A stretch of 64,000 nt of DNA from Bacteroidota bacterium (GCA_013377005.1 JACABE010000017.1:9096-73095), one strand, 5' to 3'. Numbered from the stretch's first letter, positions 48,133 to 64,000 are shown. A program made the numbers and translations. Notes: generated by a model from the letters alone, not told the origin.

Positions 48133-48289
48133 ATCTCCTTTTACTGTTAAAATATTCTGGCAATACTATTTTATTTTCATCATGTTAAATAATAAATTCT
48201 TCATAATTTTATATTTTTTCAGGGATCAAGTTTAAAAGTTGTGGGGGGATTTGAAAAAAAGGCGAACTTTGTCGAAAAAAGGCGAACTG

Positions 48290-48655
48290 ATGCACGAATC
48301 ATTTAACCAGTTACTACGATTAATTTTACCAGAAGGAATAGAAAATTATTTTGAATTAAATAATTATACTAAATCAGAAGAAGAACTTCATCTATATTTA
48401 GACGAGATTAATAAACAACCTGAAGAGTTTGTTAAGGATAAACTCACCTCCAAAGGTTTTTTTAAAGAGGTAACAATACAAGATTTTCCGATTCGTGGAA
48501 TGCATGTTTATCTTCACATAAAGCGACGTAGATGGCTTAATGAAAGGAGCGGGCAAGTTGTTTTCAGAGACTGGAACTTAGTAGCCAAAGGTACGCGAAT
48601 CACAAAAGATTTTGCGTCTTTTTTAAAAGAAATCAGTCGATACCCAAGCCTGTAA
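48290..48655 (+). CDS. transposase N-terminal region protein (ISAon1-type)
   Basis: LILPEGIENYFEL...IQDFPIRGMHVYLHIKRRRWLN...RDWNLVAKGTRITKDFASFLK. The ATG at 48290 is preferred over the TTG at 48239. Confidence 0.7.
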   Translation: MHESFNQLLRLILPEGIENYFELNNYTKSEEELHLYLDEINKQPEEFVKDKLTSKGFFKEVTIQDFPIRGMHVYLHIKRRRWLNERSGQVVFRDWNLVAKGTRITKDFASFLKEISRYPSL

Positions 48656-48683: not shown

Positions 48684-49619
48684 GTGGATGGTAAGAAACT
48701 GCAACGGCAATATAAGACCAGACTAAGCGATTATGAACAATGGGAATATCGCAAGAATGCAAAACAGGGCATGGTTTTTACCGAGAATATTGGGCCATTT
48801 TTATCTATCGATGAAACATCATTGAGTCATGGCGAGCTCTATACCATCATAACCAATAAAGAACGCAAAGGTAAAAGAGTTTCTGTTGTAGCGATACTTG
48901 AAGGTACAAAGGCTGAAAGTATTATTGATATGCTTGGCAAAATACCCATCAGTAAAAGAAAGAAAGTACTGGAAGTAACATTAGATTTAGCTCCAAATAT
49001 GAGCCTGATCGTAAGAAAATCCTTCCCAAATGCAGTTCTTGTAATTGACCGTTTTCATGTTCAGCAACTGGCAACAGAAGCTTTGCAAGAGATAAGAATA
49101 AAGCATCGTTGGCAAGCAATTGATGCAGAAAATGAAGCTATAGAACTTGCTAAGAAAAGCAAAAAAAAATACAACCCTGAAGTTCTTCAAAATGGAGATA
49201 CACTCAAACAGTTATTGGATCGTAGCCGATATGTACTATACAAAAATAAGGATAGCTGGTCTGAATCACAGAAACAACGCGCACAAATACTCTTTGAAAA
49301 ATATCCTGACATTAAATCTGCTTATGAAATAACACGCACTTTATCCGATATTTATACACATACTAAAATCAAAATATACGCTTACACTCGTTTAGCAAAA
49401 TGGCATGAAATGGTCGATAAATCTGGATTTAAATCTTTTAATACAATATCAAAAACCATTATTAATAACTATAAGCATATTTTAAACTACTTCAATAATA
49501 GAAGTACCAATGCTTCTGCTGAATCTTTTAATGCTAAAATTAAAGCTTTTAGATCGCAATTTAGAGGTGTTAATGATATTAATTTTTTCCTTTTTAGAAT
49601 CGCTAAATTATTTGCTTAA
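48684..49619 (+). CDS. DDE transposase catalytic ORF (ISL3-like)
   Basis: SIDETS, TLDLAPNM, VIDRFHVQQL and the C-terminal SNASAESFNAKIKAFRSQFRG, which resembles the ISL3 TNGxxEGxNxKIK motif. GTG start. The frame is open from 48627 and overlaps ORF1. Confidence 0.8.
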   Translation: MDGKKLQRQYKTRLSDYEQWEYRKNAKQGMVFTENIGPFLSIDETSLSHGELYTIITNKERKGKRVSVVAILEGTKAESIIDMLGKIPISKRKKVLEVTLDLAPNMSLIVRKSFPNAVLVIDRFHVQQLATEALQEIRIKHRWQAIDAENEAIELAKKSKKKYNPEVLQNGDTLKQLLDRSRYVLYKNKDSWSESQKQRAQILFEKYPDIKSAYEITRTLSDIYTHTKIKIYAYTRLAKWHEMVDKSGFKSFNTISKTIINNYKHILNYFNNRSTNASAESFNAKIKAFRSQFRGVNDINFFLFRIAKLFA

Positions 49620-49685
49620 TTTTTTAATCCCACAACTTTTGAGACTGATCCCAAAATTCATCGTCTACCATATCATCCACTACAA

Positions 49686-49724
49686 TAAAAAAAAACAGCT
49701 ATAATCATTTGAATTATAGCTGTT
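49686..49724 (-). terminator. intrinsic terminator of the (now truncated) tRNA-Leu gene
   Basis: On the minus strand, an 11-bp stem ACAGCTATAAT / ATTATAGCTGT followed by T9, 16 nt beyond the tRNA 3-prime end. Confidence 0.6.
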
Positions 49725-49739
49725 TCGTTTAGTTAAACG

Positions 49740-49797
49740 TACCCCGGGCGGGACTTGAACCCGCACGACCGCAATGGTCACAGGATTTTAAGTCCAG
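49740..49797 (-). tRNA. tRNA-Leu(UAA) 3-prime fragment: anticodon arm, long variable arm, T-arm and 3-prime acceptor strand only (att-site remnant)
   Basis: The reverse complement reads CTGGA-CTTAAAA-TCCTG (anticodon TAA), GACC-ATTGC-GGTC variable arm, GCGGG-TTCAAGT-CCCGC T-arm, CCGGGGT-A. The sequence 5-prime of the anticodon stem has no D-arm or 5-prime acceptor strand. Confidence 0.7.
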
Positions 49798-49861
49798 CAA
49801 GCAATATTAAAATACTGTAAAATCAGCTATTTCAGGCTTACATTTTGATGCAAAATACAAC

Positions 49862-49897
49862 ATTTCCGCACCCATTTCCGCACCCACTTCCGCACCC
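49862..49897. repeat. three tandem 12-mers ATTTCCGCACCC / ATTTCCGCACCC / ACTTCCGCACCC
   Basis: Read directly. They lie 65 nt inside the island from the tRNA fragment. Confidence 0.85.
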
Positions 49898-50198
49898 TAT
49901 ATCCTACAAAATATAATCTGTAAATTTAATACCATATATTTTTTGGCATTACTATTTTATGTGAGTGTAAAAAGTTCCTCCTCCTTTTACTTGGCGTAAA
50001 TTATGCGTAAAGTGATCATAAAATCCAGTTTAATGGGAAAAAGTGAATTGGTGATTTATTTTCAAAGATTATTTTGGGAAATTTATTCAATATACACCAT
50101 TAATTTGGAAAAATATTGACGATAGTTATTATTACTAGAAAAAATATTTTATTATAGAAAATTTATTTAAAAATATATCTTATTTTAGAAAAAATATA

Positions 50199-50206
50199 TA
50201 ATTTTG
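50199..50206 (+). promoter_or_regulatory. Bacteroidota -7 promoter box (TAnnTTTG) for the Fic gene
   Basis: TAATTTTG lies 19 nt upstream of the ATG at 50226, preceded by three TAGAAAA(A)AT repeats. Confidence 0.4.
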
Positions 50207-50225
50207 TTCTTTTAAATATTGTATT

Positions 50226-51701
50226 ATGGAAAATAAGTTAAAAGTTTATTATAAAGATATCATTTTTGCTTCTTCTAACCCTATTGAAATTAGGAAAAAT
50301 AAAAAATTGCTTGACGAAGGTTTGATTAGGAAAATTGCCCCAAAAATATATTCCGCAAATCTTATAGATAATCCAGCAGATATTATTAGAACAAACCTGT
50401 TTGAAATATTGAGCCATCAATACCCGGGTGCTTTATTAAGCCATCGTAGTGCCATAGAATTTAAACCTACTTCAAAAGGAGTTATTTTTCTGACATATAC
50501 TTATACAAAAAAAATCACATTGCCTGGTGTTACTATAAGTTTATTAGAGGGGAATCCTCCAATGAATGGTGATAATATGTTTTATGGTACTTTATATGCT
50601 TCACAATTTGAAAGGGCATTATTGGAAAATTTACAAATTAGCAAGAAGCCAGGACCAGAATCTAAAACTTTGTCAATTCCAGAGATTGAAGAAAAGCTTG
50701 AATCTTTTATAAGAGTTAAGGGTGAAAACGAATTAAATTTAGCTAGAGATCGAGCCAGAGTTTTATCAATTCAGCTCAATATGCAAAATGAATTTAATAA
50801 ACTCAATACAATAATCAGTGCTCTTTTATCAACAAAACCAGTAACCAATTTAAAATCAAAAATTGCTATTGCAAGAGCTATCGGTTCTGCTTATGATCCT
50901 GAAAGGAAAAAAATATTTGAAATGCTTTTTCAATCCCTTATTTCAAATTCATTTGCTAATCGCCCTGAAAAAAACAATACATCTAAATCATTTCGGAATT
51001 TTGCCTTTTTTGAAAGTTATTTTTCAAACTATATTGAAGGAACCAAATTTGAAATATCTGATGCTAAAACGATAATAGAATCTGGCATAGCATTACCAAA
51101 CCGTCCTGATGACTCCCATGACATTTTAGGTACTTATAAATTAGTATCTTCGTTAAATAATGTAAGAATTGTTCCTGAAAATTTTGCACATTTTATTGAA
51201 TTACTTTTAACCCGTCACAAAATTTTATTAGAAGGAAGACCCTATATCATGCCGGGTGAATTTAAAAATACAAACAACAGAGCAGGGAATACTTTTTTTG
51301 TTGATTATAAATTAGTCAGAGGAACGCTGGAACAGGGTTTTGAGTATTATAAAGCACTAAGAGAACCATTTGCAAAGGCAGCATATATCATGTTTCTGAT
51401 TAGCGAAGTGCATCCTTTTAATGATGGAAATGGACGTACAGCAAGACTATTTATGAATTCAGAATTAGCTATAGCAAATCAATCTAAAATTTTGATTCCA
51501 TCTGTATATAGGGACGATTATTTATTATCATTGAAAAAACTTTCACAGCAAAAAAGCCCCGAATCTTATATCAAAATGCTTGACAGAATTCATCAATTCA
51601 GCGAAACGGTCGTTGGTGATAACATAGATGTAATGCAAAATTATTTAGAATCATGTAATGCCTTCAAAGAATCAGAAGATATCTACAGATTAAAATTTTG
51701 A
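50226..51701 (+). CDS. Fic-family protein (class II, auto-inhibited) with an AbiEi-like N-terminal domain
   Basis: HPFNDGNGRTARL Fic active-site motif. Upstream SNYIEG matches the (S/T)xxxE(G/N) inhibitory helix. The N-terminal ~200 aa (GLIRKIAPKIYS, GALLSHRSAIEF) resemble AbiEi-type antitoxin domains. Confidence 0.85.
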   Translation: MENKLKVYYKDIIFASSNPIEIRKNKKLLDEGLIRKIAPKIYSANLIDNPADIIRTNLFEILSHQYPGALLSHRSAIEFKPTSKGVIFLTYTYTKKITLPGVTISLLEGNPPMNGDNMFYGTLYASQFERALLENLQISKKPGPESKTLSIPEIEEKLESFIRVKGENELNLARDRARVLSIQLNMQNEFNKLNTIISALLSTKPVTNLKSKIAIARAIGSAYDPERKKIFEMLFQSLISNSFANRPEKNNTSKSFRNFAFFESYFSNYIEGTKFEISDAKTIIESGIALPNRPDDSHDILGTYKLVSSLNNVRIVPENFAHFIELLLTRHKILLEGRPYIMPGEFKNTNNRAGNTFFVDYKLVRGTLEQGFEYYKALREPFAKAAYIMFLISEVHPFNDGNGRTARLFMNSELAIANQSKILIPSVYRDDYLLSLKKLSQQKSPESYIKMLDRIHQFSETVVGDNIDVMQNYLESCNAFKESEDIYRLKF

Positions 51702-51930
51702 TTTTCTATTTTGATTAAATGTTCAAATTCTTAATAATGCATGATGAATAAATTTCTGTTGTTCTGCATTTAAATTGTTGGATAAATATACTCTTGCCAT
51801 TATATATATAATTATACAGGGCAGTTTTTACCCCATATATTACCACAAAACACATTACAAAAGGACACATGTTTTTATAAAAACAAAAAAGAGTATAATA
51901 ATCAAATTTTTTATCCTATGGCCTATAAAC

Positions 51931-51980
51931 GGAATTTACCTAAATTCCTTTGGTCTATGAATGGAATTTGCCTAAATTCC
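51931..51980. promoter_or_regulatory. two copies of an 18-bp palindrome GGAATTT(A/G)CCTAAATTCC spaced 32 bp start to start (operator-like)
   Basis: 51931-51948 and 51963-51980. Each has perfect 8-bp arms around a CC centre. Confidence 0.45.
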
Positions 51981-52093
51981 TTCGTTTTGTTCTTTTTATT
52001 GTTTTGTATAGGAAGTGCCAAATTTACACCTTCATTCATTTTTCATTTTAAATTAATTATATAAGAGTATTTAATAGTATTAAATATAATGTA

Positions 52094-52134
52094 TTTTGTC
52101 TCATGTTTTCATAACATGTCCCAAAAAGACAAAA
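52094..52134. other. nested inverted repeat (candidate oriT or regulatory hairpin)
   Basis: Outer arms TTTTGTCT / AGACAAAA, inner arms CATGTT / AACATG, with an 8-nt bulge. It lies in the 837-bp gene-poor region upstream of the mobilization operon. Confidence 0.3.
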
Positions 52135-52538
52135 CTTGGTACACGTAACCAAATTAAATTTATTTTATATTTTGTTCAATAGATTTTAAAAAAGTAATGC
52201 TTTCTGTTACATTCTCTTTATATTTTTTATTATCAACAAGATTCTTACCACCTTTTACCTCATTAATCTCTTTTAAAACTAAGTTGCCCTGCATACACGC
52301 ATTCATCATTGAAGGAGCGAATGTAAAGGATATTTGCAGAAAATATTTACACATAGTAAATGTAAATTGAGTGTAAAGCTATTGTAAAGCCAGATGTAAT
52401 AAGAAAAAGAGAAACGTGAATTAATATTGCAACAAAAAATTGAAAGCAAAAAAAGTCAAGTTGCATTTAAAAAATCCAGAGCTATGATGCAGTTCCAATG
52501 TAAAAATTAAAAATAGTATTCATTTAAAACTTAAAATC

Positions 52539-53186
52539 ATGTTTAAATTCAGAAATGACACCCGATTCGTTGAATACCCAAAAGCAGTAACAGGGCAATA
52601 TTCAATAAAAGCAGAACAAAAAATTGCAGAGAACAAAACCGAAGATCGTTTTAATACAAAATGGATTACCATAGGTTATCTCACCAAGAAGTTCAGTAAG
52701 GAAGAAAACAAGTACATCTACACAGCGACCGATTCAGCAGGAAATCAAATTTTCCAAAATATCAAAGAACTACATGTTTTAAAACAAGCGTTTCGAGACA
52801 ATGGAAAGCAATTAGCTGAAAATGCACAGATGGTTCGTTTGGCAAGAATAAGCAAAACCAACAAATCAGAAAGAACGAATAACCGCCAAAGAAACATAGA
52901 TTTAAAAAACCTTAGAGATAAGAAAAACCATGAGGTTTTAAAACAAGAGCAAAAAGCCAAAAACCTGAAAACAGAAAAAGAACTGGATGCTAAAAATACT
53001 GAGAAATATAAAGATACTGAGCATTCCAAAACTGAGAACCCACCTAAAGAAACTTCTCAGGAAGAAGTAAAACCCGACATAGAAAATCAAGATGAGCAAG
53101 ATAAAGTATCGGAAAGAATGGATGAGTTAGAAGAAATCAGAGAACAAGATAATGGTATAGAACAGGATTTGGAAATGGATATGTAA
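52539..53186 (+). CDS. hypothetical protein, N-terminal globular domain plus highly charged Lys/Glu-rich tail
   Basis: 215 aa ORF and first gene of the operon. The segment KYIYTATDSAGNQIF is paralogous to CVLYTASDLESQQIF in the next ORF. Confidence 0.55.
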   Translation: MFKFRNDTRFVEYPKAVTGQYSIKAEQKIAENKTEDRFNTKWITIGYLTKKFSKEENKYIYTATDSAGNQIFQNIKELHVLKQAFRDNGKQLAENAQMVRLARISKTNKSERTNNRQRNIDLKNLRDKKNHEVLKQEQKAKNLKTEKELDAKNTEKYKDTEHSKTENPPKETSQEEVKPDIENQDEQDKVSERMDELEEIREQDNGIEQDLEMDM

Positions 53187-53202
53187 ACCAAAAGTAATCC
53201 CA

Positions 53203-53577
53203 ATGAAAAAGACATCATCAGAAAAGAGCTATATCTCTTTCAGCACACCTGACCCAATTAACAGCATCGTTTCTGTTTTCAAAGTTTTCCCAGACGGTTC
53301 AATGGAAACTATAGGGAAGATAAATTCTTATTACCTACTCGAAGAAGGATGTGTGTTATACACAGCTTCCGATCTTGAAAGCCAGCAAATCTTCCCATCC
53401 TCTACCGATTTTACAGAAATTGAGAATCAATTTATACAATATGCAAAAGAACAATCCGAAAAATCATTTATTGAAGCCATGAAGGCAGAAGCTGAAAAGT
53501 CAACAAACCGCAAAGAATCATTAAGACATATTCGAAATCTAAAATTTAAGGATTTCGAATTTAATAAATCATATTAA
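53203..53577 (+). CDS. hypothetical protein, paralogous domain to the preceding ORF
   Basis: 124 aa ORF, 16 nt after the previous stop. Shares the YTA(S/T)D....QIF segment. Confidence 0.55.
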   Translation: MKKTSSEKSYISFSTPDPINSIVSVFKVFPDGSMETIGKINSYYLLEEGCVLYTASDLESQQIFPSSTDFTEIENQFIQYAKEQSEKSFIEAMKAEAEKSTNRKESLRHIRNLKFKDFEFNKSY

Positions 53578-53599
53578 TAACTATTTAAATTTCAACAAA

Positions 53600-54682
53600 A
53601 TGAAAAAAATCGACAAAATTTCAAAAGTGACAACGTTTCAAAACAAAGAAGTAGAAGCTAACTTCAAACAAAAAGAAAAAGAAGTAATGACCTTAGCTCA
53701 AAGGTCGGGGAAAACCTTTGGTGGTAACAATCTCCCTGAACCTATTGGAGATAATTTAGTCCCCTATATTGGAGACTTTAAAACAATCTGCGAAGAGTTG
53801 GTTTCTTATACAGACGAAAAGCTACAGTCTCATTCTCATGTTCCTGAATTCAACACAGATAAGAATAATGTTATGGAGGAGGAAGGTAAAATTAAGGAAC
53901 ATAATTCAGAGATTGAAAATTCTCTTAAAAATTTAAAAAGTGAGATAGAAAGTATGGATGTAGAGGATTTTGACAAAAAAATAAAATTTATTTTAATAGT
54001 AAGTACAATTTTATGTCTATCTGAGTCAGCCTTTAACACTATAGCTTTTGAAGCTGTTGGTGACAACCTATTATTTGCGATTGCTCTTGCAGTACCTATT
54101 ACCATATTAATTTTACTTATCTCTCATGTATTTGGTACACAAGTTAGAAAAATACAAAATCCAACCACAAAAAAACTCACTATAGTAGGTGTATTGTTAG
54201 CAATGATACCAATATTTTATGTATTGGGGAGTTTGAGAACGATTGTTATGGAAAAAGAGGGCAACACAGGAATAGGAATAATAACTTTTATAATCATCAA
54301 TTATTTCTTCTTTATAGCTACTGCAATTTTATCTTATAAATACTGGCCAACTAAAGAAGAAAGCCTACAACATGAGGAATTAAAAAAACTAAAAGCCGAA
54401 TACAAAAAAAAGGAAAAGGAACTTAAAAATAATCATCAGCATATGACTCAATTAAATGTTGGATTGAATAGTAAGGCTATACATATCAATCACATATCCT
54501 ATTCCAGAGAATATTATGTTGATAAGGCTACAAAGTTATACAACAAAGCTGTTTCTGTTTTCATAAAGAATAACATAATGCACCGTAGCGACAGAAAAAT
54601 ACCGGACTGTTGTATGGAACCCTATCCTAAATTAAATATCACAGGCAATTTTGATTATCATTTAACCAATAATAAAAATTAA
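53600..54682 (+). CDS. hypothetical membrane protein: coiled-coil N-domain, 4 TM helices, second coiled coil
   Basis: 360 aa. TM helices FILIVSTILCLSESAFNTIAF, LLFAIALAVPITILILLISHVF, LTIVGVLLAMIPIFYVLGSL and IGIITFIIINYFFFIATAILSY. The Lys/Glu-rich segment HEELKKLKAEYKKKEKELK follows. Confidence 0.6.
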   Translation: MKKIDKISKVTTFQNKEVEANFKQKEKEVMTLAQRSGKTFGGNNLPEPIGDNLVPYIGDFKTICEELVSYTDEKLQSHSHVPEFNTDKNNVMEEEGKIKEHNSEIENSLKNLKSEIESMDVEDFDKKIKFILIVSTILCLSESAFNTIAFEAVGDNLLFAIALAVPITILILLISHVFGTQVRKIQNPTTKKLTIVGVLLAMIPIFYVLGSLRTIVMEKEGNTGIGIITFIIINYFFFIATAILSYKYWPTKEESLQHEELKKLKAEYKKKEKELKNNHQHMTQLNVGLNSKAIHINHISYSREYYVDKATKLYNKAVSVFIKNNIMHRSDRKIPDCCMEPYPKLNITGNFDYHLTNNKN

Positions 54683-54684
54683 AC

Positions 54685-55401
54685 ATGAAAGCACTATTAT
54701 ATATTTTAGGCACCCTTTTAATTATTTCACTTCCTTTAGCATGGCTGTTTTTCAACAGCCATGCTCTATCGATTGATACAGTGATAATTAATGATCATAC
54801 AGATTATTTCACAGTAAAACCAAAAGCGGATGAAATTAAAAATCTATATGATTTTAAAAACAATATCTGGGATGAAGCAAATTTTCGATTGATAAATATT
54901 ACGGATATAAATATTAATAAAACATATCAGGCTAAAATTGAATCCGAGAATTACCTTTTGAGTAATAAATTCAAGCGTAAAGAAAAGATAAAAGCATTTT
55001 TAACTGATATAGATAAAATCACCGTAAATTCAGAAAAAGAGAAAATAGGGAAGGATTATTCTGCAATATACGAACCTATAGCTAAAGAATTAAACCGTTT
55101 AAGCCAGCATAAAGCCGACAAAAAATACATGCTTATCTATGGAGATTTAATGCAAAACACCGATGAAATTTCATTTTACGATAAAAATGTTTTTGAGAAG
55201 CTCAAATCTAATCCAGACAAAATAAAGCAATATTTTAATTCTCAAGTATCGTTGAATAATTTAGGTGGTATAAAAATAATTCTACTTTTCCAGCCCAACA
55301 ATATTAAACAGGATGTGGAATATAAAGTAGTAAGTGAATTCTACAAAAAGCTGTTTGAAGAAAAAGGTGCAAAAGTAGAAATCACAGCTAATCTGAATTA
55401 A
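54685..55401 (+). CDS. hypothetical N-terminally anchored extracytoplasmic protein
   Basis: 238 aa with an N-terminal TM (LLYILGTLLIISLPLAWLFF). Starts 2 nt after the previous stop. Confidence 0.55.
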   Translation: MKALLYILGTLLIISLPLAWLFFNSHALSIDTVIINDHTDYFTVKPKADEIKNLYDFKNNIWDEANFRLINITDININKTYQAKIESENYLLSNKFKRKEKIKAFLTDIDKITVNSEKEKIGKDYSAIYEPIAKELNRLSQHKADKKYMLIYGDLMQNTDEISFYDKNVFEKLKSNPDKIKQYFNSQVSLNNLGGIKIILLFQPNNIKQDVEYKVVSEFYKKLFEEKGAKVEITANLN

Positions 55402-55413
55402 AAACCTGAAGAA

Positions 55414-55569
55414 ATGAAATTTTGGAAAATATTTTGGAAAATATTTGCATGGTTGTTTAAACTTGCCCTTAAATTATTCTTTCTTCTTCTCTGGGCATCA
55501 TTAAGTATTACAGAAATCATACTACACCATGTAAATGAATACCTGAAAAAATTATCAACTCATAAATAA
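55414..55569 (+). CDS. 51-aa hydrophobic peptide upstream of the coupling protein
   Basis: Not in the ORF track. MKFWKIFWKIFAWLFKLALKLFFLLLWASLSITEIILHHVNEYLKKLSTHK. Gaps of 12 nt and 10 nt to its neighbours. Confidence 0.4.
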   Translation: MKFWKIFWKIFAWLFKLALKLFFLLLWASLSITEIILHHVNEYLKKLSTHK

Positions 55570-55579
55570 TAAACTTACT

Positions 55580-57019
55580 ATGGAAATAATTACACATCTT
55601 TTTACAACAGTTATTGAAATCATTGGCGATATTTTCAAATTTTTCTTTGAAGCTATTGAACTAATCTTTTCAAAAAACAATAAGGAGTATAAAGCTGACT
55701 TTGCATCAGCAGGGATTTTACTTTCAAGATTCAATTACGGCTTTTGTCTGACGGGAAGCAAAAGCCTTAGCCGAAAGGATTCTTATCAAAATACTTTGGT
55801 GATAGGCGGCACGGGCGTTGGTAAAACGTCCGTAGTTTTGGTTCCCAGTATTTTTAAAATGAGGGGAAGCTTTGTAATTCATGATCCATCAGGAGAACTC
55901 TATGTTAAGAGTGCAGGCTATTTAAAACAAAAAGGCTATCAGATTAAAGTATTGAATTTTACCAATCCTGATAAATCATCAGGATATAATCCCTTGCAAA
56001 GAATTAATACTACTTCCGATATACAGAAGGTAGCTTCCATGTTAGTAGAAACTGCTTTGGGCGGAAAAGCAAAAGATCCATTCTGGAATATTCAGGCGAT
56101 ATCTTTGCTTGCAATGTTGATTACTATATTAAAAAAGCAGGGTAGTGAATATCAAAATCTGTATAATGTCCGTCAATTACTTAATCGCTTGGGTGGAGAT
56201 CCTCAATCTGTCGATGCTTTGTTTAGCGAATTTGCCGATGAAATATTATTTGCCGAATACAAAAGCTTTTTAAGTTTTGATGAAAAGGTCATAAGCGGAG
56301 TCATAGCCACCTGTAAAGCTTCCTTACAAATTTTCAGTGACGATGCCGTGGCAAAAGTAACTTCTTTTGATAATCTAGATTTTCAAGAATTCAGGGACAT
56401 TCCTACTGCTTTGTATATTCAGAACTCGGTGGCTGATCAAAAATATTACAGCGTGTTAACCTCAATATTTTTTGAACAGTTTTTCTCTTTTCTGTTGGGT
56501 CGTTTTCCAACTCAAACAGAACAGGATATTTTCCTGTTGATTGATGAGGCAAGTTCTCTGAACCTTCCAACTTTGCCATTGGCGGTTGCCAATGTCAGAA
56601 AACACCGCTCAGGCATTATGCTGTTGGTGCAGGATTTCAATCAACTGATACATAATTATGGTAAATATGATGCAGATGGCATCAAAGCCAATTGTTTTGC
56701 CAAGATGTATTTCACAGGACAATCCTTGGAAACTTCTACAGAATTGGAAAAGACTTTAGGTAAATATGAATACAAAGATAAAGAAGGACATAAGGTTATT
56801 CGTAGTTTAATGACCAGTGATGAAGTTCGTATGATGAATATTAAAAGAGCCTTGCTCATCTGCGGTCATCATCCTCCGATCAAAGCGAGATTAAGACCCT
56901 ATTACAAAAATAGTAAGTTCAGGAATTATAGTAATATCCTAATTCCTGAAACGGAGAACAAAGGTTTGGAAAGTGTTGCTGTATTACCAATAAATCTAAA
57001 AAGGAACAAAGATGAGTAA
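55580..57019 (+). CDS. type IV coupling protein (TraG/VirD4/TraD family)
   Basis: 479 aa. N-terminal hydrophobic segment, Walker A GGTGVGKTS, Walker B LLIDEASSL, and a FTGQS...LG region typical of T4CPs. Confidence 0.85.
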   Translation: MEIITHLFTTVIEIIGDIFKFFFEAIELIFSKNNKEYKADFASAGILLSRFNYGFCLTGSKSLSRKDSYQNTLVIGGTGVGKTSVVLVPSIFKMRGSFVIHDPSGELYVKSAGYLKQKGYQIKVLNFTNPDKSSGYNPLQRINTTSDIQKVASMLVETALGGKAKDPFWNIQAISLLAMLITILKKQGSEYQNLYNVRQLLNRLGGDPQSVDALFSEFADEILFAEYKSFLSFDEKVISGVIATCKASLQIFSDDAVAKVTSFDNLDFQEFRDIPTALYIQNSVADQKYYSVLTSIFFEQFFSFLLGRFPTQTEQDIFLLIDEASSLNLPTLPLAVANVRKHRSGIMLLVQDFNQLIHNYGKYDADGIKANCFAKMYFTGQSLETSTELEKTLGKYEYKDKEGHKVIRSLMTSDEVRMMNIKRALLICGHHPPIKARLRPYYKNSKFRNYSNILIPETENKGLESVAVLPINLKRNKDE

Positions 57020-57596
57020 TACAAAGAAACACCAGAGCGGAATGTGGGAATATTTGGATTCAACTGGTGTACTTGAATGGGGAAATGATGAAGCAATTAA
57101 AAAGGCAAAGAAAGCCTATCGAAAAATATATTTTACAAAACAGAAAAGAAAACAAAGGGCTGTAAAAAGAGAATTTACAATTAGATTTTCTAAAGAAAAC
57201 GGAGAATTTATTAAAATAGCCCACGAAGCCAAACAGCATAATTTAAAAATTACTGAATTTCTTAAATCAGCTGTTATGGCATACATCAATCAAACCTTTG
57301 TTATTCCAGACCATTGGCAGGTAGCAGAATTAGAGTTGTTGTTATCCCAGTGCTTAAATGAAATTCAAACCATCGTAAAACAAAAGGAAAGATACAGTTT
57401 CGACAGGGAATACAAATATGAACTCATTGAAAAAAGAATTGAAAAATTGGAATCTGAAATTCATTTAGTATTAAAAAACCCTTATACCATTGAGGAAATA
57501 GTTATCAGAGGAATAGAAGAAAAACCGTCATTAAAAGAACAATTGCTTACTATTCTTACAAACCATAAAAATGATTATCAAAATCAAATCACATAA
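57012..57596 (+). CDS. relaxosome accessory protein (MobC-type ribbon-helix-helix)
   Basis: REFTIRFSKENGEFIKIAHEAKQHNLKITEFLKSAVMAYI fits the RHH accessory motif. The ORF overlaps both the T4CP stop and the relaxase start. Confidence 0.6.
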   Translation: MSNTKKHQSGMWEYLDSTGVLEWGNDEAIKKAKKAYRKIYFTKQKRKQRAVKREFTIRFSKENGEFIKIAHEAKQHNLKITEFLKSAVMAYINQTFVIPDHWQVAELELLLSQCLNEIQTIVKQKERYSFDREYKYELIEKRIEKLESEIHLVLKNPYTIEEIVIRGIEEKPSLKEQLLTILTNHKNDYQNQIT

Positions 57597-58422
57597 AACT
57601 AAAAATTCATTTCAGAAATTGCTTAATTACATGCTTTATGACAAAGACCGACTATTTGATGAAAAGGGATATAGCTTTATTGTATCTCACAACCTGAAAG
57701 GAAATGATATTAACGAATGGATAAAGCAATATCAGGATAATGAACAGTACAGGCGATTAAAAAGAGTGAATTCAGTTTTATTAACGCATGAGATTATCAG
57801 TTTTCATAAGGATGATGCTACAAACATTTCGTTGGAAAAGCTCGAAGATATAGCTAGACAATATATTAGACAGCGGAATATAAACGGGATGTATGTGGCA
57901 GTACCCCATTTTGACAAAGAACATTATCATATTCACATTTGTGCTTCGGGGATTGAATACAGGACAGGTAAAGCCATGCGATTATCAAAAACCGAATTAT
58001 TGAGTGTAAAGAAAGAAATACAGAATTACCAGATTGAAAAATACCCTGAATTAAGCAAATCACTGGTAAATCACGGAAACGAAAAAAAAGAATATGCCCT
58101 CTCTGATAAGGAATACAAATACAAAGAAAGAACAGGGAGGGCTTCCGACAAAGAACAATTAATCGGCATGATGAAAACTTGCTACAAAAAAGCAGATTCA
58201 AAAGATGATTTTTATGAAAATTTAAAAGCTTGCGGATTAACCACCTATATCAGAGGGGGGAAGATATCCGGAATAGTTTTTAATGATAAGAAATTCAGGA
58301 TAAATCGTCTGGGATTTACGGATGAAAGATTAGAAGAACTGAATAAATCAATCAACCGAGGTAAAGAAATAGGCGAATTAAGAGAAAAGTCAAATGAAAA
58401 AATTATTAATCGTAATAGATAA
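57571..58422 (+). CDS. relaxase/mobilization nuclease domain protein
   Basis: 283 aa with N-terminal MIIKIKS. The histidine triad context HFDKEHYHIHI (HxDxxxHxH) is typical of PF03432-type relaxases. Confidence 0.85.
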   Translation: MIIKIKSHKTKNSFQKLLNYMLYDKDRLFDEKGYSFIVSHNLKGNDINEWIKQYQDNEQYRRLKRVNSVLLTHEIISFHKDDATNISLEKLEDIARQYIRQRNINGMYVAVPHFDKEHYHIHICASGIEYRTGKAMRLSKTELLSVKKEIQNYQIEKYPELSKSLVNHGNEKKEYALSDKEYKYKERTGRASDKEQLIGMMKTCYKKADSKDDFYENLKACGLTTYIRGGKISGIVFNDKKFRINRLGFTDERLEELNKSINRGKEIGELREKSNEKIINRNR

Positions 58423-58430
58423 TTATCATT

Positions 58431-59408
58431 ATGCAAAATCAAATTTCAAATAATAAAATAACTGACGTTTATACTATCGTTACCAATCGTGTCATTGAAC
58501 ATCTTGAAAAAGGTGTAGTTCCATGGCACAAGACCTGGACGGAAGCAGGTTTGCCAAAGAATTTAATCACAGGTAAAAATTACCGAGGAATTAATGTTTG
58601 GCTTTTATCAACCCTCAATTATCAACAAAATTATTTTCTTTCTTTCAATCAAGTGAAAGATTTAGGAGGTTCAGTTAAAAAAGGGGAGAAATCACATGAA
58701 GTTATTTTTTGGAAATGGTTAGAAAAGGAAAATGATGAAACCAAAGAAAAAGAAAGAATACCAATGTTGAAATATTACAGGGTTTTTAATATTTCTCAAT
58801 GTGAGGGAATTCCAATTGAAAAAATACCAAAACAAATTGAACGCAATAATAATCCGATTGAAATTTGTGAGAAAGTTGTTAATGAGATGCCTCTAAGACC
58901 AAGAATACAGCATAACGAACAAAGAGCTTACTACAACAGATTAAACGATTTTGTGAATATGCCTAAAATAGAAACTTTTGATAAAAGTGAAGATTATTAC
59001 GGAGCATTGTTTCATGAATTGGTTCATAGTACAGGACATGGTGAAAGGCTAAATCGCAAAGAGTTATTGGAAAGTAAGGGTATGCGAACTGATAAATACG
59101 CCATTGAAGAATTAACTGCTGAAATGGGAGCTTCTTATCTTAAATCTCATGCAGGGATTCCGATTGAACAGTTGGAAAATAACGCTTCTTATATTCAGCA
59201 TTGGTTGGAACATTTAAAAAATGACAAGAAATTTATTGTATATGCCAGCTCTCAGGCTCAAAAAGCTACGGATTATATTTTGAATATTAAAAATGAGGAA
59301 AGGGGATTAGGAATGGATGAAGATGGTAGAACTCCGGATAGAAATGAGCAGATTAATGACATTCGAGATAAAAACAAACCAAACAGGAAAGTAGAAATTG
59401 AAAGATAA
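58431..59408 (+). CDS. ardC: ArdC-like protein: ssDNA-binding N-domain (DUF1738) plus zincin metalloprotease domain
   Basis: VPWHKTW, YRGINVWLL and the HELVHSTGH (HExxH) motif, followed by a basic C-terminal tail. Confidence 0.85.
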   Translation: MQNQISNNKITDVYTIVTNRVIEHLEKGVVPWHKTWTEAGLPKNLITGKNYRGINVWLLSTLNYQQNYFLSFNQVKDLGGSVKKGEKSHEVIFWKWLEKENDETKEKERIPMLKYYRVFNISQCEGIPIEKIPKQIERNNNPIEICEKVVNEMPLRPRIQHNEQRAYYNRLNDFVNMPKIETFDKSEDYYGALFHELVHSTGHGERLNRKELLESKGMRTDKYAIEELTAEMGASYLKSHAGIPIEQLENNASYIQHWLEHLKNDKKFIVYASSQAQKATDYILNIKNEERGLGMDEDGRTPDRNEQINDIRDKNKPNRKVEIER

Positions 59409-59580: not shown

Positions 59581-59743
59581 AAAAAAGCGTTAGCTTTTAT
59601 TTCTGTATCGGAAATCTGGAAAATTTAAGGTGTACTGAAATAATAAGTAGAACGCTCACGCCTAAGGCGTGGGCTTTTCTTATTTGTACACCGGGCTTTC
59701 CAGAGCCTCCGATACGAAGACAGTTAAGTTCCCACGCTTTTTT
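59581..59743 (+). other. 163-nt imperfect inverted repeat forming a rod-like hairpin, closed by A6GCG / CGCT6
   Basis: Manually paired helices: 59581-89/59735-43 (9 bp), 59605-12/59708-15 (8 bp), 59615-22/59697-704 (8 bp), 59629-35/59686-92 (7 bp), 59642-47/59679-84 (6 bp), and an apical 59654-62/59666-74 (9 bp, 3-nt loop). TAnnTTTG boxes lie at 59499-59506 and 59523-59530 upstream. Confidence 0.6.
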
Positions 59744-59786
59744 ATTTTTACCTATTCAATAAACGTCTCTGGGAATTGGACAACAA

Positions 59787-59865
59787 AAGTGGAGTCCAGA
59801 AACCATTAAAAACGGGGCGTTACCGAAAAGCCAGACGAGTAGGGAAACTTTAAAAATAATATATT
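59787..59865 (+). promoter_or_regulatory. conserved leader motif, copy 1
   Basis: Shares with 60751-60829 the identical blocks AAGTGGAGTCCAGAA, AAAAACGGGGCG, TACCGAAAAGCC and GAGTAGG, in the same order. It ends 22 nt before the ATG. Confidence 0.55.
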
Positions 59866-60726: not shown

Positions 60727-60750
60727 CGACCAATAATTTTACATTAAGAT

Positions 60751-60829
60751 AAGTGGAGTCCAGAACCCACCCTAAAAAACGGGGCGGTACCGAAAAGCCT
60801 TATGAGTAGGAAATTTAAAATAAATAAAT
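60751..60829 (+). promoter_or_regulatory. conserved leader motif, copy 2
   Basis: See copy 1. It ends 19 nt before the ATG at 60830. Confidence 0.55.
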
Positions 60830-61925: not shown

Positions 61926-62270
61926 CTTTGCATTCGCTTTTTTCATAATGTATCTTTGGCTTCATTTTTATAAAAATGTAAATATTTAAATAATTATGCT
62001 TGAAATAAATTGTAATGTTGTAATTGTTTTCAATTGTATTTGTGCTTATTATGACATTTTTCTTTTATTGTTGTTCTTTGCGATTTTTTATATAAATATT
62101 GTTTCAAAAACCACAACAATAAATAATAAAATGCCTTTACTTGCAAATATAGCTTATTGGTATTATTTACGCTGACTGTGGCTGCAACTTATTTAAGTTG
62201 TAGCCATAAATTTAATCATAATTAATTGAATTAAAAATAACAAAGTAAATAATTAAACAAATTAAAAATA

Positions 62271-64000
62271 ATGAAAAAAATAATAATTATGCTTATTGCA
62301 ATCACATGTTTGCAATTAAAAGTATCGTATTCGCAAAAAGTTGTTGCAATAAATGCTGTGTATAATACAGACACTGTTATTAGCCTTAACAATATGCCAA
62401 ATATTTATTCATTAAATATCAATGGTCAGATTACTTTAAATAATAGTTTAAGTTTTGTTAGGGTAATAATGATAGATACATCCGGCGAAAAATATCTGAT
62501 TTATGAAGGTTCGAAAATGCTCAAGAATGCCTTGAATATTACGTTAAATAATCAGGCGGAAGAAACCTATTTTTTGAGTAAACGTAAACCTGTAGCCATT
62601 GAAGTTGATATTAAAAATGCACAGTTTACATTAAGCAATATTGCTATGGATACTATGGCTAACAACAACAAAAACACAAGCTACAATACTTATTTAAACA
62701 ACCTCTTTAGCCAGAAATTAGCCAATATTAATAACTATATTTCCGAAAATCAGTTGCAATGGATTGCCGGAGATAATCCAATTGCAAGATATACCTATTC
62801 TCAAAAATTAACGCTGTTTAATGGTACTATGCCCGATTTACAGGGCTTTGAATACTATAAAGGAGGCGTATTTGAGCGACTACCCAAATCAACGGCTACA
62901 GCCACCCAAAGCAATGTTGTTAAAAGTTTTGATTGGACAAATAGACATGGACAAGATTGGACAACGGTACCTAAAGATCAAAGCTCTTGTAACAGTTGTG
63001 CTCTTTTTGCATCTACTGGTGCAGTAGAGGCTTTGGTTAATCTTTATTATAATCATTCTGATATTGGTATTGATTTGTCAGAACAAAATCTTGCTTCTTG
63101 TGTGCCTGGTAGCTGTTCTTCTGGATGGCCAGCATCTTATGCTCTGGATTACTATACTAATACTGGTGTCGTAAAAGAAGCTTGTTTTTGGTATAACCCA
63201 TTTTTTGGATGGCAACCATGTTCAAACATTTGTAGTAATCCTAATGAACGCATAAAAATTGGCGGAAGAATTGATTTTTACACTGCATTATGCACAGAAC
63301 CAGAAGATGAGTTAAAAAAATTGCTTATAACACATGGTCCTATAAGTGCTGCGCTTGCGAGTTTGGTACATGCAATGACTTTAGTTGGTTTTAAAACTCG
63401 AATATCAGACAATAGTACAATATGGAAATTTAAAAATAGTTTTGGTACAATGTGGGGTGACGGAGGATTTGTAGAATATGCAGGTATTCTTATGAATGAC
63501 TTTTATTATACCTCTGCTCTCAAAACGCCTGTCCAAAGTTTACAATACACAGATAATGATATTGTTTGTGTTGATGCTGATGGTGATGGTTATTATAATT
63601 GGGGGATTGGTCCAAAGCCAGCTACTTGCCCACTTTGTCCCGACCAAGAAGATTGTGATGATTCCAAAGCATTTTTAGGCCCTTATGATGGACAATATAA
63701 TTGTACTTTTATATGCGATAATTTTGTTTATTCTAGTACGCCACTTGAAATAAATCAAAATGAAATATGGAATTATAATTATGATTGCAATCAAGATATT
63801 ATTGTAAAAACTGGATATACCTTAACCATTGAAAAAACATTAAATATGGCTGTTGGCACAAAAATCATTGTACAACCCGGTGCTAGATTAATAATTAATG
63901 GTGGCAAAATAACCAATCTTTGCGGTCAGATGTGGAAAGGTATCGAAGTATGGGGTACCCGCGATTCCGAGCAGGAAGATGCATTTTATTCTCCTAATCA
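62271..64000 (+). CDS. secreted C1 (papain-family) cysteine peptidase with N-terminal pro-region and Cys-rich/beta-helix-like C-terminal extension (3-prime end beyond window)
   Basis: Not in the ORF track (no stop in the window). ATG at 62271 and signal peptide MKKIIIMLIAITCLQLKVSYSQ. Catalytic contexts DQSSCNSCALFAS (Cys), HAMTLVGF (His) and KNSFGTMWGDGGF (Asn). Then VCVDADGDGYYNWG...CPLCPDQEDCDD. Confidence 0.8.
   Translation, partial: MKKIIIMLIAITCLQLKVSYSQKVVAINAVYNTDTVISLNNMPNIYSLNINGQITLNNSLSFVRVIMIDTSGEKYLIYEGSKMLKNALNITLNNQAEETYFLSKRKPVAIEVDIKNAQFTLSNIAMDTMANNNKNTSYNTYLNNLFSQKLANINNYISENQLQWIAGDNPIARYTYSQKLTLFNGTMPDLQGFEYYKGGVFERLPKSTATATQSNVVKSFDWTNRHGQDWTTVPKDQSSCNSCALFASTGAVEALVNLYYNHSDIGIDLSEQNLASCVPGSCSSGWPASYALDYYTNTGVVKEACFWYNPFFGWQPCSNICSNPNERIKIGGRIDFYTALCTEPEDELKKLLITHGPISAALASLVHAMTLVGFKTRISDNSTIWKFKNSFGTMWGDGGFVEYAGILMNDFYYTSALKTPVQSLQYTDNDIVCVDADGDGYYNWGIGPKPATCPLCPDQEDCDDSKAFLGPYDGQYNCTFICDNFVYSSTPLEINQNEIWNYNYDCNQDIIVKTGYTLTIEKTLNMAVGTKIIVQPGARLIINGGKITNLCGQMWKGIEVWGTRDSEQEDAFYSPN

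Follow-up and report, generated by a model that had tools for sequence, protein, structure and literature searches.

A conserved three-gene core beside a coupling protein without a transmembrane domain: a candidate docking module of mobilizable islands in Bacteroidota

The transmembrane (TM) domain of VirD4-type type IV coupling proteins (T4CPs) has been described as essential, and T4CPs need either such a membrane domain or a membrane partner (PMC7434980). Two arrangements with partners have been reported: a T4CP subfamily without a TM domain (in the Alvarez-Martinez and Christie classification) complexes with small membrane proteins, as in TraJ/TraI of pIP501, and in the TraG-TraJ subfamily, which includes the proteins of the IncH plasmid R27 (Gunton et al. 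2007), the coupling protein requires an adjacent polytopic membrane protein, TraJ (∼200 amino acids [aa], up to five TM segments) (PMC7434980). According to a 2017 review, the few known integrative mobilizable elements (IMEs) of Bacteroidetes encode a relaxase and no coupling or pore protein; these include NBU1, NBU2, Tn4399, and Tn4555, which are integrated, tRNA-associated, carry a MOBP-type relaxase, and are mobilized by MPF_B conjugative transposons (PMC5704250). Here we describe a gene block in a 64,000-nucleotide stretch of Bacteroidota bacterium DNA (GCA_013377005.1, JACABE010000017.1:9096-73095; "the window"), which encodes its own divergent T4CP, lacking a TM segment, directly downstream of five genes, a to e (positions 52539 to 55569). 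Three of these genes, c, d, and e, form an almost invariable core with this T4CP and may encode its membrane partners.

The block consists of nine tightly packed open reading frames (ORFs) on the same strand (52539 to 59408, + strand), one fewer than an earlier note on this stretch had counted; they are separated by intergenic gaps of 16, 22, 2, 12, 10, and 8 nucleotides (nt), and two gene pairs overlap, in keeping with the spacing given there (gaps of at most 22 nt, or overlaps). The Pfam families of the co-oriented T4CP, relaxase, and ArdC genes were confirmed. The only convincing terminator-like hairpin follows ArdC and is the probable end of the operon. The features of the block are as follows.

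52539-53186, + strand: gene a, 215 aa; cytoplasmic; optional component
53203-53577, + strand: gene b, 124 aa; small cytoplasmic paralogue of the gene a domain; optional component
53600-54682, + strand: gene c, 360 aa; polytopic inner-membrane protein; core component
54685-55401, + strand: gene d, 238 aa; membrane-anchored extracytoplasmic protein of predicted von Willebrand factor A (vWA) fold; core component
55414-55569, + strand: gene e, 51-aa single-pass peptide; core component; candidate T4CP membrane anchor
53607-55046, + strand: exchangeable cassette, c and the first ∼120 codons of d, as delimited by blastn of the window against its closest relative, locus L013
55580-57019, + strand: T4CP, VirD4-type coupling protein, 479 aa; PF02534 (E = 9e-55), PF10412, PF12696
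57012-57596, + strand: relaxosome accessory protein, 194 aa, possibly ribbon-helix-helix; weak RelB-antitoxin-like match at residues 55-93 (NCBIfam)
57571-58422, + strand: MOBP-type relaxase, 283 aa; PF03432 (E = 1.7e-16), weak MobP1/TraI_MobP matches
58431-59408, + strand: ArdC-like anti-restriction/zincin metallopeptidase protein, 325 aa; PF08401 and PF18818; optional
59654-59674, + strand: terminator-like GC-rich hairpin and T run, 3' of ArdC

As the earlier note had stated, genes a to e match no family: searches against Pfam, NCBIfam, PADLOC, and PHROGs gave zero significant matches, profiles of a, b, c, and d found nothing among PDB sequences, c, d, and e matched no Tra/VirB/Trb family profile in Pfam or NCBIfam, and these three have no description in the libraries or literature that we searched. 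Its outline of the individual products also holds: a has a globular N-terminal domain and a charged Lys/Glu tail (and, in addition, an acidic C-terminal motif); a and b share a paralogous segment; c has four TM helices flanked by long helices, there called coiled coils; d is anchored by one N-terminal hydrophobic segment and extracytoplasmic; and e is a single hydrophobic helix, conserved in relatives. The structure search it had proposed does give one result, a vWA fold for the model of d. All five genes are under purifying selection: in close pairs, the ratio of nonsynonymous to synonymous substitution rates (dN/dS) is 0.05 to 0.15 for c, 0.11 to 0.26 for d, 0.03 to 0.46 for e, 0.14 to 0.26 for a, and 0.15 to 0.48 for b, compared with 0.05 to 0.10 for T4CP. 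Since these values (0.03 to 0.48) are joined by conservation in ∼90 independent loci, a to e are real genes, and chance ORFs are ruled out.

To survey conservation, a metagenome scan with the d profile as query added 80 loci, and all loci were scored with local hidden Markov models (HMMs). The order c-d-e-T4CP-accessory-relaxase is kept in ∼90 loci from metagenomes or metagenome-assembled genomes (MAGs), even where T4CP identity is as low as 36%. In 56 of 58 loci, d is immediately preceded by c, one of the two exceptions being a start-codon artefact; T4CP follows within 1.4 kb downstream in 55 of 56, the single exception being a rearranged contig; and both the relaxase and the accessory protein, the latter between T4CP and relaxase, are present in all 42 loci scored for them. 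The HMM detected e in 41 of 56 loci, and e was conserved in every locus that was inspected. Other genes of the block are less constant: ArdC is present in 21 of 37 loci, and a or b in 26 of 41 (a in 25, b in 17). In some loci a and b are absent, or are fused and sited after e. Thus, the survey of related T4CP-relaxase modules that the earlier note had suggested very strongly supports conservation for c, d, and e and fails to do so for a and b: the block has two layers, an invariant core, c-d-e, and an optional, movable a/b module. We therefore reject the indivisible five-gene system that had been proposed there.

The core is not confined to a few close relatives. A comparison of c with 5.8 billion proteins returned eight clusters only, all of whose contigs have the same gene order, as do three Bacteroidales/Bacteroides MAGs; an exhaustive profile search of 1.84e9 proteins found 776 representatives (50% clustering) at E ≤ 1e-3, 357 of them at E ≤ 1e-10. 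Near-all of the best 150 listed are full length, mostly 330 to 390 aa. Given the 776 representatives, the best of them full length, c founds a large family. Ten distant relatives of c gave sub-threshold noise only against Pfam, with no Tra/VirB/Trb family, and the source names for distant relatives are all "hypothetical protein." Three distant members (P0150, P0174, and P0197) again lie in the context c-d-(e)-T4CP-accessory-relaxase, and this order holds in relatives whose T4CPs are 36 to 45% identical. In environmental metagenomes of Bacteroidota, inland-water and New Zealand groundwater MAGs among them, this family of islands is represented by hundreds of clusters at 50% identity. Among 72,556 plasmids, we found no homologue of c or d; a search of the whole-block DNA against plasmids likewise yielded no homologue of a to e, only short ArdC-like segments in three Firmicutes plasmids.

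The T4CP of the block lacks a TM domain by hydropathy: no 19-residue window reaches a Kyte-Doolittle value of 1.6. Its Walker A motif lies at approximately residues 76 to 84, preceded by only one short acidic amphipathic helix, and its relatives have at most one marginal N-terminal helix. The nearest NCBIfam family is CD1115 VirD4-like, from Firmicutes (235.7 bits versus a cutoff of 250), and the best plasmid relatives are <30% identical. The closest of these, on the Desulfotalea psychrophila plasmid NC_006140.1 (L019; 26% identity), likewise has a short N terminus; this 14.7-kb plasmid, typed as non-mobilizable in PLSDB, has the order accessory-relaxase-two small ORFs-T4CP, and its inspection for analogues of c, d, and e revealed neither c nor d.

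Peptide e, whose gene ends 10 nt before the T4CP start, is rich in Lys at its beginning, has a single hydrophobic helix, and closes with the conserved sequence IEIIxHHxNxYLKKL. It is co-inherited with T4CP in mosaic pairs (94% versus 92% identity). The mean net charge of the first 25 residues of e is +4.4, compared with −1.9 for the T4CP N-terminal helix, and the two helices are of opposite charge sign in 26 of 32 loci; as a sequence pattern, this complementarity is suggestive, and only suggestive, of pairing.

By analogy, the TM-less T4CP with its partner and the TraG-TraJ pair are the closest precedents for e, and probably for c. The proteins c, d, and e belong to no described Tra/Mob accessory family, yet the concept of a membrane-partnered T4CP is not new (PMC7434980). 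In pIP501, as here, a TM-less VirD4-type ATPase stands beside a small membrane protein, and the two are thought to give a VirD4-like membrane complex (PMC7434980). The settings differ: pIP501 is conjugative, comes from Gram-positive bacteria, and encodes a type IV secretion system (T4SS), whereas the present block belongs to a diderm Bacteroidota, has no T4SS, and includes two further invariable partners, a four-TM 360-aa protein and a predicted vWA lipoprotein. The R27 pair has a polytopic membrane protein beside its coupling protein; c, also polytopic, always lies two genes upstream of T4CP, but TraG is ∼700 aa with its own TM domain and R27 is self-transmissible, in contrast to our 479-aa T4CP with no TM segment (PMC7434980). 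Moreover, c is 360 aa with four TM helices and large cytoplasmic helical domains, shows no detectable similarity to R27 TraJ, and is parted from T4CP by d and e. A conceptual parallel is offered by mobilizable islands of the SGI1 type, whose own mating-pore subunits (TraN, TraH, and TraG) are envelope proteins that remodel the apparatus of the IncC helper and affect specificity and exclusion (PMC5389848; PMC5704250). The SGI1 proteins are recognizable homologues of helper T4SS subunits and SGI1 has no T4CP of its own, while c, d, and e match no T4SS family.

We modeled c with AlphaFold2 (137-sequence alignment; pLDDT 93.9, pTM 0.77). The all-helical model has N-terminal helices at residues 16-42, 54-75, and 77-118; four TM helices at 124-153, 157-184, 188-219, and 227-248, with which hydropathy agrees; and a 76-residue cytoplasmic helix (252-327) followed by a conserved R-x-D-R-K-x-P-D-C tail. 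Positive-inside loop charges indicate an N-in/C-in topology, with ∼120 and ∼110 residues predicted to be cytoplasmic, and conserved polar residues lie at the periplasmic end of TM1; the periplasmic loops carry an E-x-x-x-N-x-x-A-F-E/Q motif. Foldseek searches of PDB and BFVD with this model gave no match at E < 0.001, generic long helical bundles only; at the top of the non-significant matches stand cytoplasmic domains of chemoreceptors, along with other bundles of this kind (E ≥ 0.09, TM-score ∼0.2).

The AlphaFold2 model of d (27-sequence alignment; pLDDT 88.2) fared differently: all of its Foldseek PDB matches at E ≤ 1e-3 are vWA domains (E = 3e-5 to 1e-3, probability 0.96 to 1.0), in structures that include Ku70/80, TFIIH p44, Rpn10, vWF A1, integrin I domains, and NorD. 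Profile comparison did not detect this relationship, with no Pfam or NCBIfam VWA match at E ≤ 1 and no PDB sequence match. In the 27-homologue alignment, three residues are invariant (D37, T39, and D154) and two almost so (D40 and S126); relative to the strands, this D-x-T-D ... S ... D constellation falls where a metal ion-dependent adhesion site (MIDAS; D-x-S-x-S ... T ... D) would be expected, although the motif is imperfect (consensus D-I-T-D-S versus D-H-T-D-Y in the window protein). A lipobox cysteine is found in 16 of the 27 homologues, while the window protein instead has an uncleaved N-terminal anchor; d is therefore placed outside the cytoplasm. On the model, then, d is predicted to be a divergent vWA lipoprotein in most homologues, sharing the fold of vWA domain proteins and differing from them by its lack of a Pfam VWA match and its imperfect MIDAS. 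A literature search for a vWA lipoprotein as a conjugation component found none, and we know of no such component. In one distant relative (P0174; L017, 1674-3482), c and d are joined in a 602-aa protein, found on two contigs, whose d part was recognized by hhalign to the d profile (probability 99.8%); it may be a genuine fusion, or may result from a frameshift within the 4 nt by which c and d usually overlap.

Comparison of the window with its closest relative, L013, reveals an unusual distribution of divergence across the block. Amino acid identity is 93% for a, 56% for b, 28% for c, and 51% for d, and then returns to 94% for e, 92% for T4CP, 95% for the accessory protein, and 93% for the relaxase; DNA homology (86%; blastn) ends at 53607, in the first codons of c, and restarts at 55046, at approximately codon 121 of d. 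An independent pair, L012/L045 (T4CP 87% identical, c 32%), has the same two breakpoints. The converse also occurs, with c alleles 62 to 69% identical on backbones that are only 70 to 75% identical, and in a third pair, L032/L029, c is kept (92%) while a, b, and d are exchanged. Across pairs with T4CP identity ≥62%, the C-terminal half of d follows T4CP (Spearman 0.80), while c is nearly decoupled from T4CP (0.37) and from the d C-half (0.22). In these sequence comparisons, c plus the first ∼120 codons of d behaves as an exchangeable cassette. Because purifying selection within each type is strong, we attribute the diversity of c to old alleles reshuffled by recombination rather than to fast drift. 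Such reshuffling looks like the signature of a specificity determinant; discrete c/d allelic types on a conserved backbone are also what is seen in entry or surface exclusion determinants.

We also looked for the genes of a mating pore. None was found among 30 ORFs scanned (the island and the larger ORFs of the window), which fall into housekeeping or other non-T4SS families: the ORFs outside the island are Bacteroidota housekeeping genes, encoding, for example, a type IX secretion system plug protein, cytochrome bd, and an aminoacyl-tRNA synthetase. The flanks of relatives contain 142 Pfam families in 108 ORFs, a heterogeneous collection of cargo and host genes that includes Por_Secre_tail (as expected of Bacteroidota hosts), restriction-modification genes, and resolvases; no T4SS family is among the 25 commonest. 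The absence of recognizable mating-pore genes reported by the earlier note therefore extends from the window to the recurrent genes of its relatives. With respect to the definition of an IME, the block encodes a relaxase and a VirD4-type T4CP, and a mating-pore gene set is absent from the ORFs scanned. In L010 the insertion is compact, ∼6 kb with only c, d, e, a b-a fusion, T4CP, the accessory protein, and the relaxase. On a 448-kb contig (L009, 16489-19369), a SIR2_2 and DUF87/HerA pair of the SIR2-HerA defense type lies ∼2 kb downstream of the block.

Taken together, these data lead us to propose that the block is the transfer module of a Bacteroidota IME, located at a tRNA-Leu gene, in which c-d-e serves to anchor the T4CP of a mobilizable island and dock it on a helper's pore, with c and d as specificity determinants; we give this proposal about an even chance. 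The element would bring its own relaxase, accessory protein, and T4CP, and not encode the mating pore. Its T4CP clade would have lost the usual two-helix membrane domain, and c, d, and e would supply the missing membrane and periplasmic part: e would pair with the short acidic N-terminal helix of T4CP, c would form an inner-membrane platform by means of its four TM helices and large cytoplasmic helical domains, and d, as a vWA lipoprotein, would reach into the periplasm. As a set, the three would keep the T4CP-relaxosome complex at the membrane and couple it to a T4SS channel given in trans by a co-resident conjugative element, and c with the N-terminal half of d would determine the choice of channel or the range of accepted partners. 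We regard c, d, and e as T4CP partners because their linkage is universal (apart from the exceptions above), and as membrane partners because the T4CP has no TM segment, and a T4CP that lacks a membrane domain depends on a partner in the membrane (PMC7434980). A membrane and periplasmic role follows from the N-in/C-in topology of c, the anchored vWA domain predicted for d, a fold typical of protein-protein binding, and the single-pass nature of e. The P0174 fusion, the exchange of c with part of d as one cassette, the co-inheritance and opposite charge of e and T4CP, and purifying selection on all five genes also support the docking proposal, and a borrowed pore is suggested because no mating-pore gene was found in the scanned window ORFs or recurs in the flanks.

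Several points weigh against this proposal. No similarity of c to any T4SS subunit or solved structure is detectable; the Foldseek TM-scores of d are low (0.30 to 0.46), and no Pfam VWA model matches it. The positive N terminus of e is expected of any N-in membrane anchor, and the P0174 fusion, in which the lipobox persists internally, could be an artefact of a frameshift. Helper dependence is an assumption because none of the loci yielded a helper conjugative element; like it, every physical contact and the specificity role are things that we infer, whereas gene content, synteny, predicted folds and topology, the missing TM domain of T4CP, cassette exchange, and purifying selection are shown by the data. 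A rare T4SS gene could have been missed because the flank survey shows the 25 commonest families only, and because several loci, including the window, have no integrase within reach, some copies may be immobile remnants.

Of the three roles that the earlier note had put forward, an adaptor or docking function fits best. Its second, entry or surface exclusion or mating-partner specificity, would have c and d act mainly in a cell that already carries the element and block identical elements, with c/d alleles as exclusion groups (for the exclusion concept, see PMC11493245). In F-like plasmids and SXT/R391, allele shuffling marks exclusion and mating-specificity determinants; exclusion factors are usually lipoproteins or inner-membrane proteins; and here deeply divergent alleles of c and of the N-terminal half of d have been shuffled between near-identical backbones. 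The Eex-TraG system of SXT/R391 and TraS/TraT-TraG/TraN of F-like plasmids likewise feature membrane proteins with discrete recombining alleles on a conserved transfer backbone, but they have no homology to c or d, and c is much larger, is more conserved within type, and has T4CP, not a VirB6-like protein, as the gene product to which it is tied. Small size, poor conservation, and incomplete retention characterize known exclusion proteins, whereas c has 360 aa, conserved cytoplasmic domains, the low within-type dN/dS reported above, and ∼776 relatives; moreover, a c-d-e-T4CP order kept strictly even at 36% T4CP identity fits donor machinery better. We thus consider exclusion unlikely, bearing in mind that it and a role in donor machinery are not mutually exclusive. 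The third role, a membrane-acting defense, anti-defense, or abortive-infection module that is merely co-transcribed cargo, draws on the presence of ArdC (anti-restriction) and Fic in the same element and of the SIR2-HerA pair beside the L009 block, and some conflict systems include vWA folds and membrane proteins with coiled coils. The sole PADLOC match, however, is of a coiled coil in c to JetC (16 bits, E = 5e-4) and not meaningful; true flanking cargo varies freely, while c-d-e never part from T4CP; and a free-standing defense module should, in our expectation, be found on plasmids too, and the 72,556 plasmids searched have no homologue of c or d. Deep linkage to T4CP and variable cargo both disfavor this role, and on the linkage pattern we reject it as highly improbable.

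Two further explanations keep c-d-e functionally tied to T4CP. Together they might form a self-contained, minimal DNA exporter that is independent of VirB4 and perhaps uses host envelope machinery to cross the outer membrane. No recurrent T4SS gene lies near ∼25 long-flank loci, very compact insertions exist (as in L010), and c has an unmatched fold and, where TM1 meets the periplasm, conserved polar residues; yet all characterized single-stranded DNA conjugation needs the VirB4 ATPase and a multi-protein channel (Guedon et al., PMC5704250), c-d-e cannot plausibly span a diderm envelope, and pore-less mobilizable elements are common and parsimonious, so that we judge the exporter improbable. 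It would be a long shot, too, that the block represents a previously unrecognized VirB4-independent export device of Bacteroidota whose c/d cassette is a recognition code; if it were, islands of 6 to 12 kb would move without a classical T4SS or plug into a non-T4SS envelope machine. Alternatively, c and the periplasmic d may form an envelope sensor or regulator that senses mating contact or helper activity and gates T4CP or operon expression: chemoreceptor cytoplasmic domains are among the best Foldseek matches of c, and d could bind a ligand. Those matches are not significant, as noted above, and there is no output domain (kinase, helix-turn-helix, or cyclase) in c, a, or b, which leaves a sensor with little probability.

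If the proposed docking role is correct, c-d-e illustrates how a parasitic element links its own DNA-pumping ATPase to the channel of another, and the discrete c/d cassettes offer a natural experiment for helper or recipient specificity in conjugation. Compared with the Bacteroidetes IMEs reviewed earlier (PMC5704250), including NBU1, NBU2, Tn4399, and Tn4555, which have a relaxase but no coupling or pore protein, what is new is a TM-less T4CP of the element's own, together with three obligate, undescribed envelope proteins. Two families become annotatable, c, with no fold match, and d, a predicted divergent vWA lipoprotein, and the core provides a clean genomic marker for such islands.

The optional genes a and b encode proteins without a TM segment by hydropathy. 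In protein a, an N-terminal α/β-type domain (approximately residues 1 to 100) is followed by a linker rich in Lys and Glu and, at the C terminus, by the conserved acidic motif RMDELxEIREQ... (alignment A3); all a-type proteins end in a conserved acidic, E-L-x-x-[LI]-R-rich motif. The domain shared with b spans ∼80 alignable columns (hhalign of alignment A3 versus A5, probability 86.8%, E = 4.3e-6), and natural b-a fusion proteins of 298 to 318 aa occur in three loci (L010, 10902-11834; L055, 267-1163; L097, 79-1035). The module is movable, because the L010 fusion gene sits between e and T4CP instead of leading the operon. As optional cytoplasmic accessory factors that have one domain in common and a C-terminal E-L-x-x-L-R-type motif, a and b may act as adaptors to c or T4CP.

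Upstream of the block, the window contains the following features.

48239-48655 and 48684-49619, + strand: ISL3-family transposase split in two ORFs (zinc-ribbon part and DDE part)
49739-49796, − strand: 58-nt 3' fragment of tRNA-Leu(UAA), from the anticodon stem-loop to the acceptor end, without the 5' half
50226-51701, + strand: accessory gene for a Fic-domain protein, 491 aa; PF02661 (E = 7e-15)
52281-52304, + strand: conserved non-coding block AAGTTGCCCTGCATRCACGCATTC, upstream of a; kept in the window, L013, L001, and L007

NBU1 targets a tRNA-Leu gene. An exact copy of the 58-nt tRNA-Leu fragment lies upstream of the block in L001, L002, and L005, and the same fragment occurs in L007 and L013; it aligns with the intact tRNA-Leu(taa) of a distant relative, L090, where it is on the far side of the block. 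ARAGORN found no intact tRNA in the window. From these alignments, the fragment is probably an att remnant that marks the left end of the integrated element. The split transposase, frameshifted or inactivated, is immediately to its left. Tyrosine recombinases are found near the block in L001, L014, L015, and one further contig; in the window, tBLASTn with the recombinases of related loci and with several block-adjacent proteins detected no integrase remnant.

L008 has an orthologue of the Fic protein (85% identical) at the corresponding site upstream of its block. In the window, the Fic gene lies between sequences of ∼250 bp (49900-50153) and ∼100 bp (51933-52035), and a 32-nt tandem repeat is present at 51914-51977. 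The same flanking repeats occur in L013 (5811-6065, 8024-8278, 7382-7484, and 9595-9697) around two tandem AAA_14/DUF4143 ATPase genes, and short parts of them lie near an AAA_14/DUF4143 gene in L007. By its sequence, the Fic site looks like a repeat-bounded slot for varying accessory genes.

Between this site and gene a, an inverted repeat, GTTGCAT-N20-ATGCAAC (∼52459-52494), accompanies AAGTTGCCCTGCATRCACGCATTC; both are kept where the surrounding DNA is only ∼70% identical, which makes them candidates for the origin of transfer (oriT)/nic region or an operator. AAGTTGCCCTGCATRCACGCATTC may resemble the MOBP nic core, YATCCTG|Y. A permissive Rfam scan of 49600-52600 gave nothing meaningful. 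Downstream of the block, two DUF805 RNA motifs (Rfam RF03081; 76 and 79 bits) lie at 59784-59849 and 60748-60816 on the + strand; one precedes a gene for a 286-aa protein with a hydrophobic N terminus and no Pfam match, and the other precedes one for a 273-aa outer-membrane beta-barrel protein. A large ORF on the + strand (∼62252-64000), with a signal-peptide-like start, MKKIIIMLIAITCLQLKVSYSQ..., encodes at least 582 aa and runs past the end of the window.

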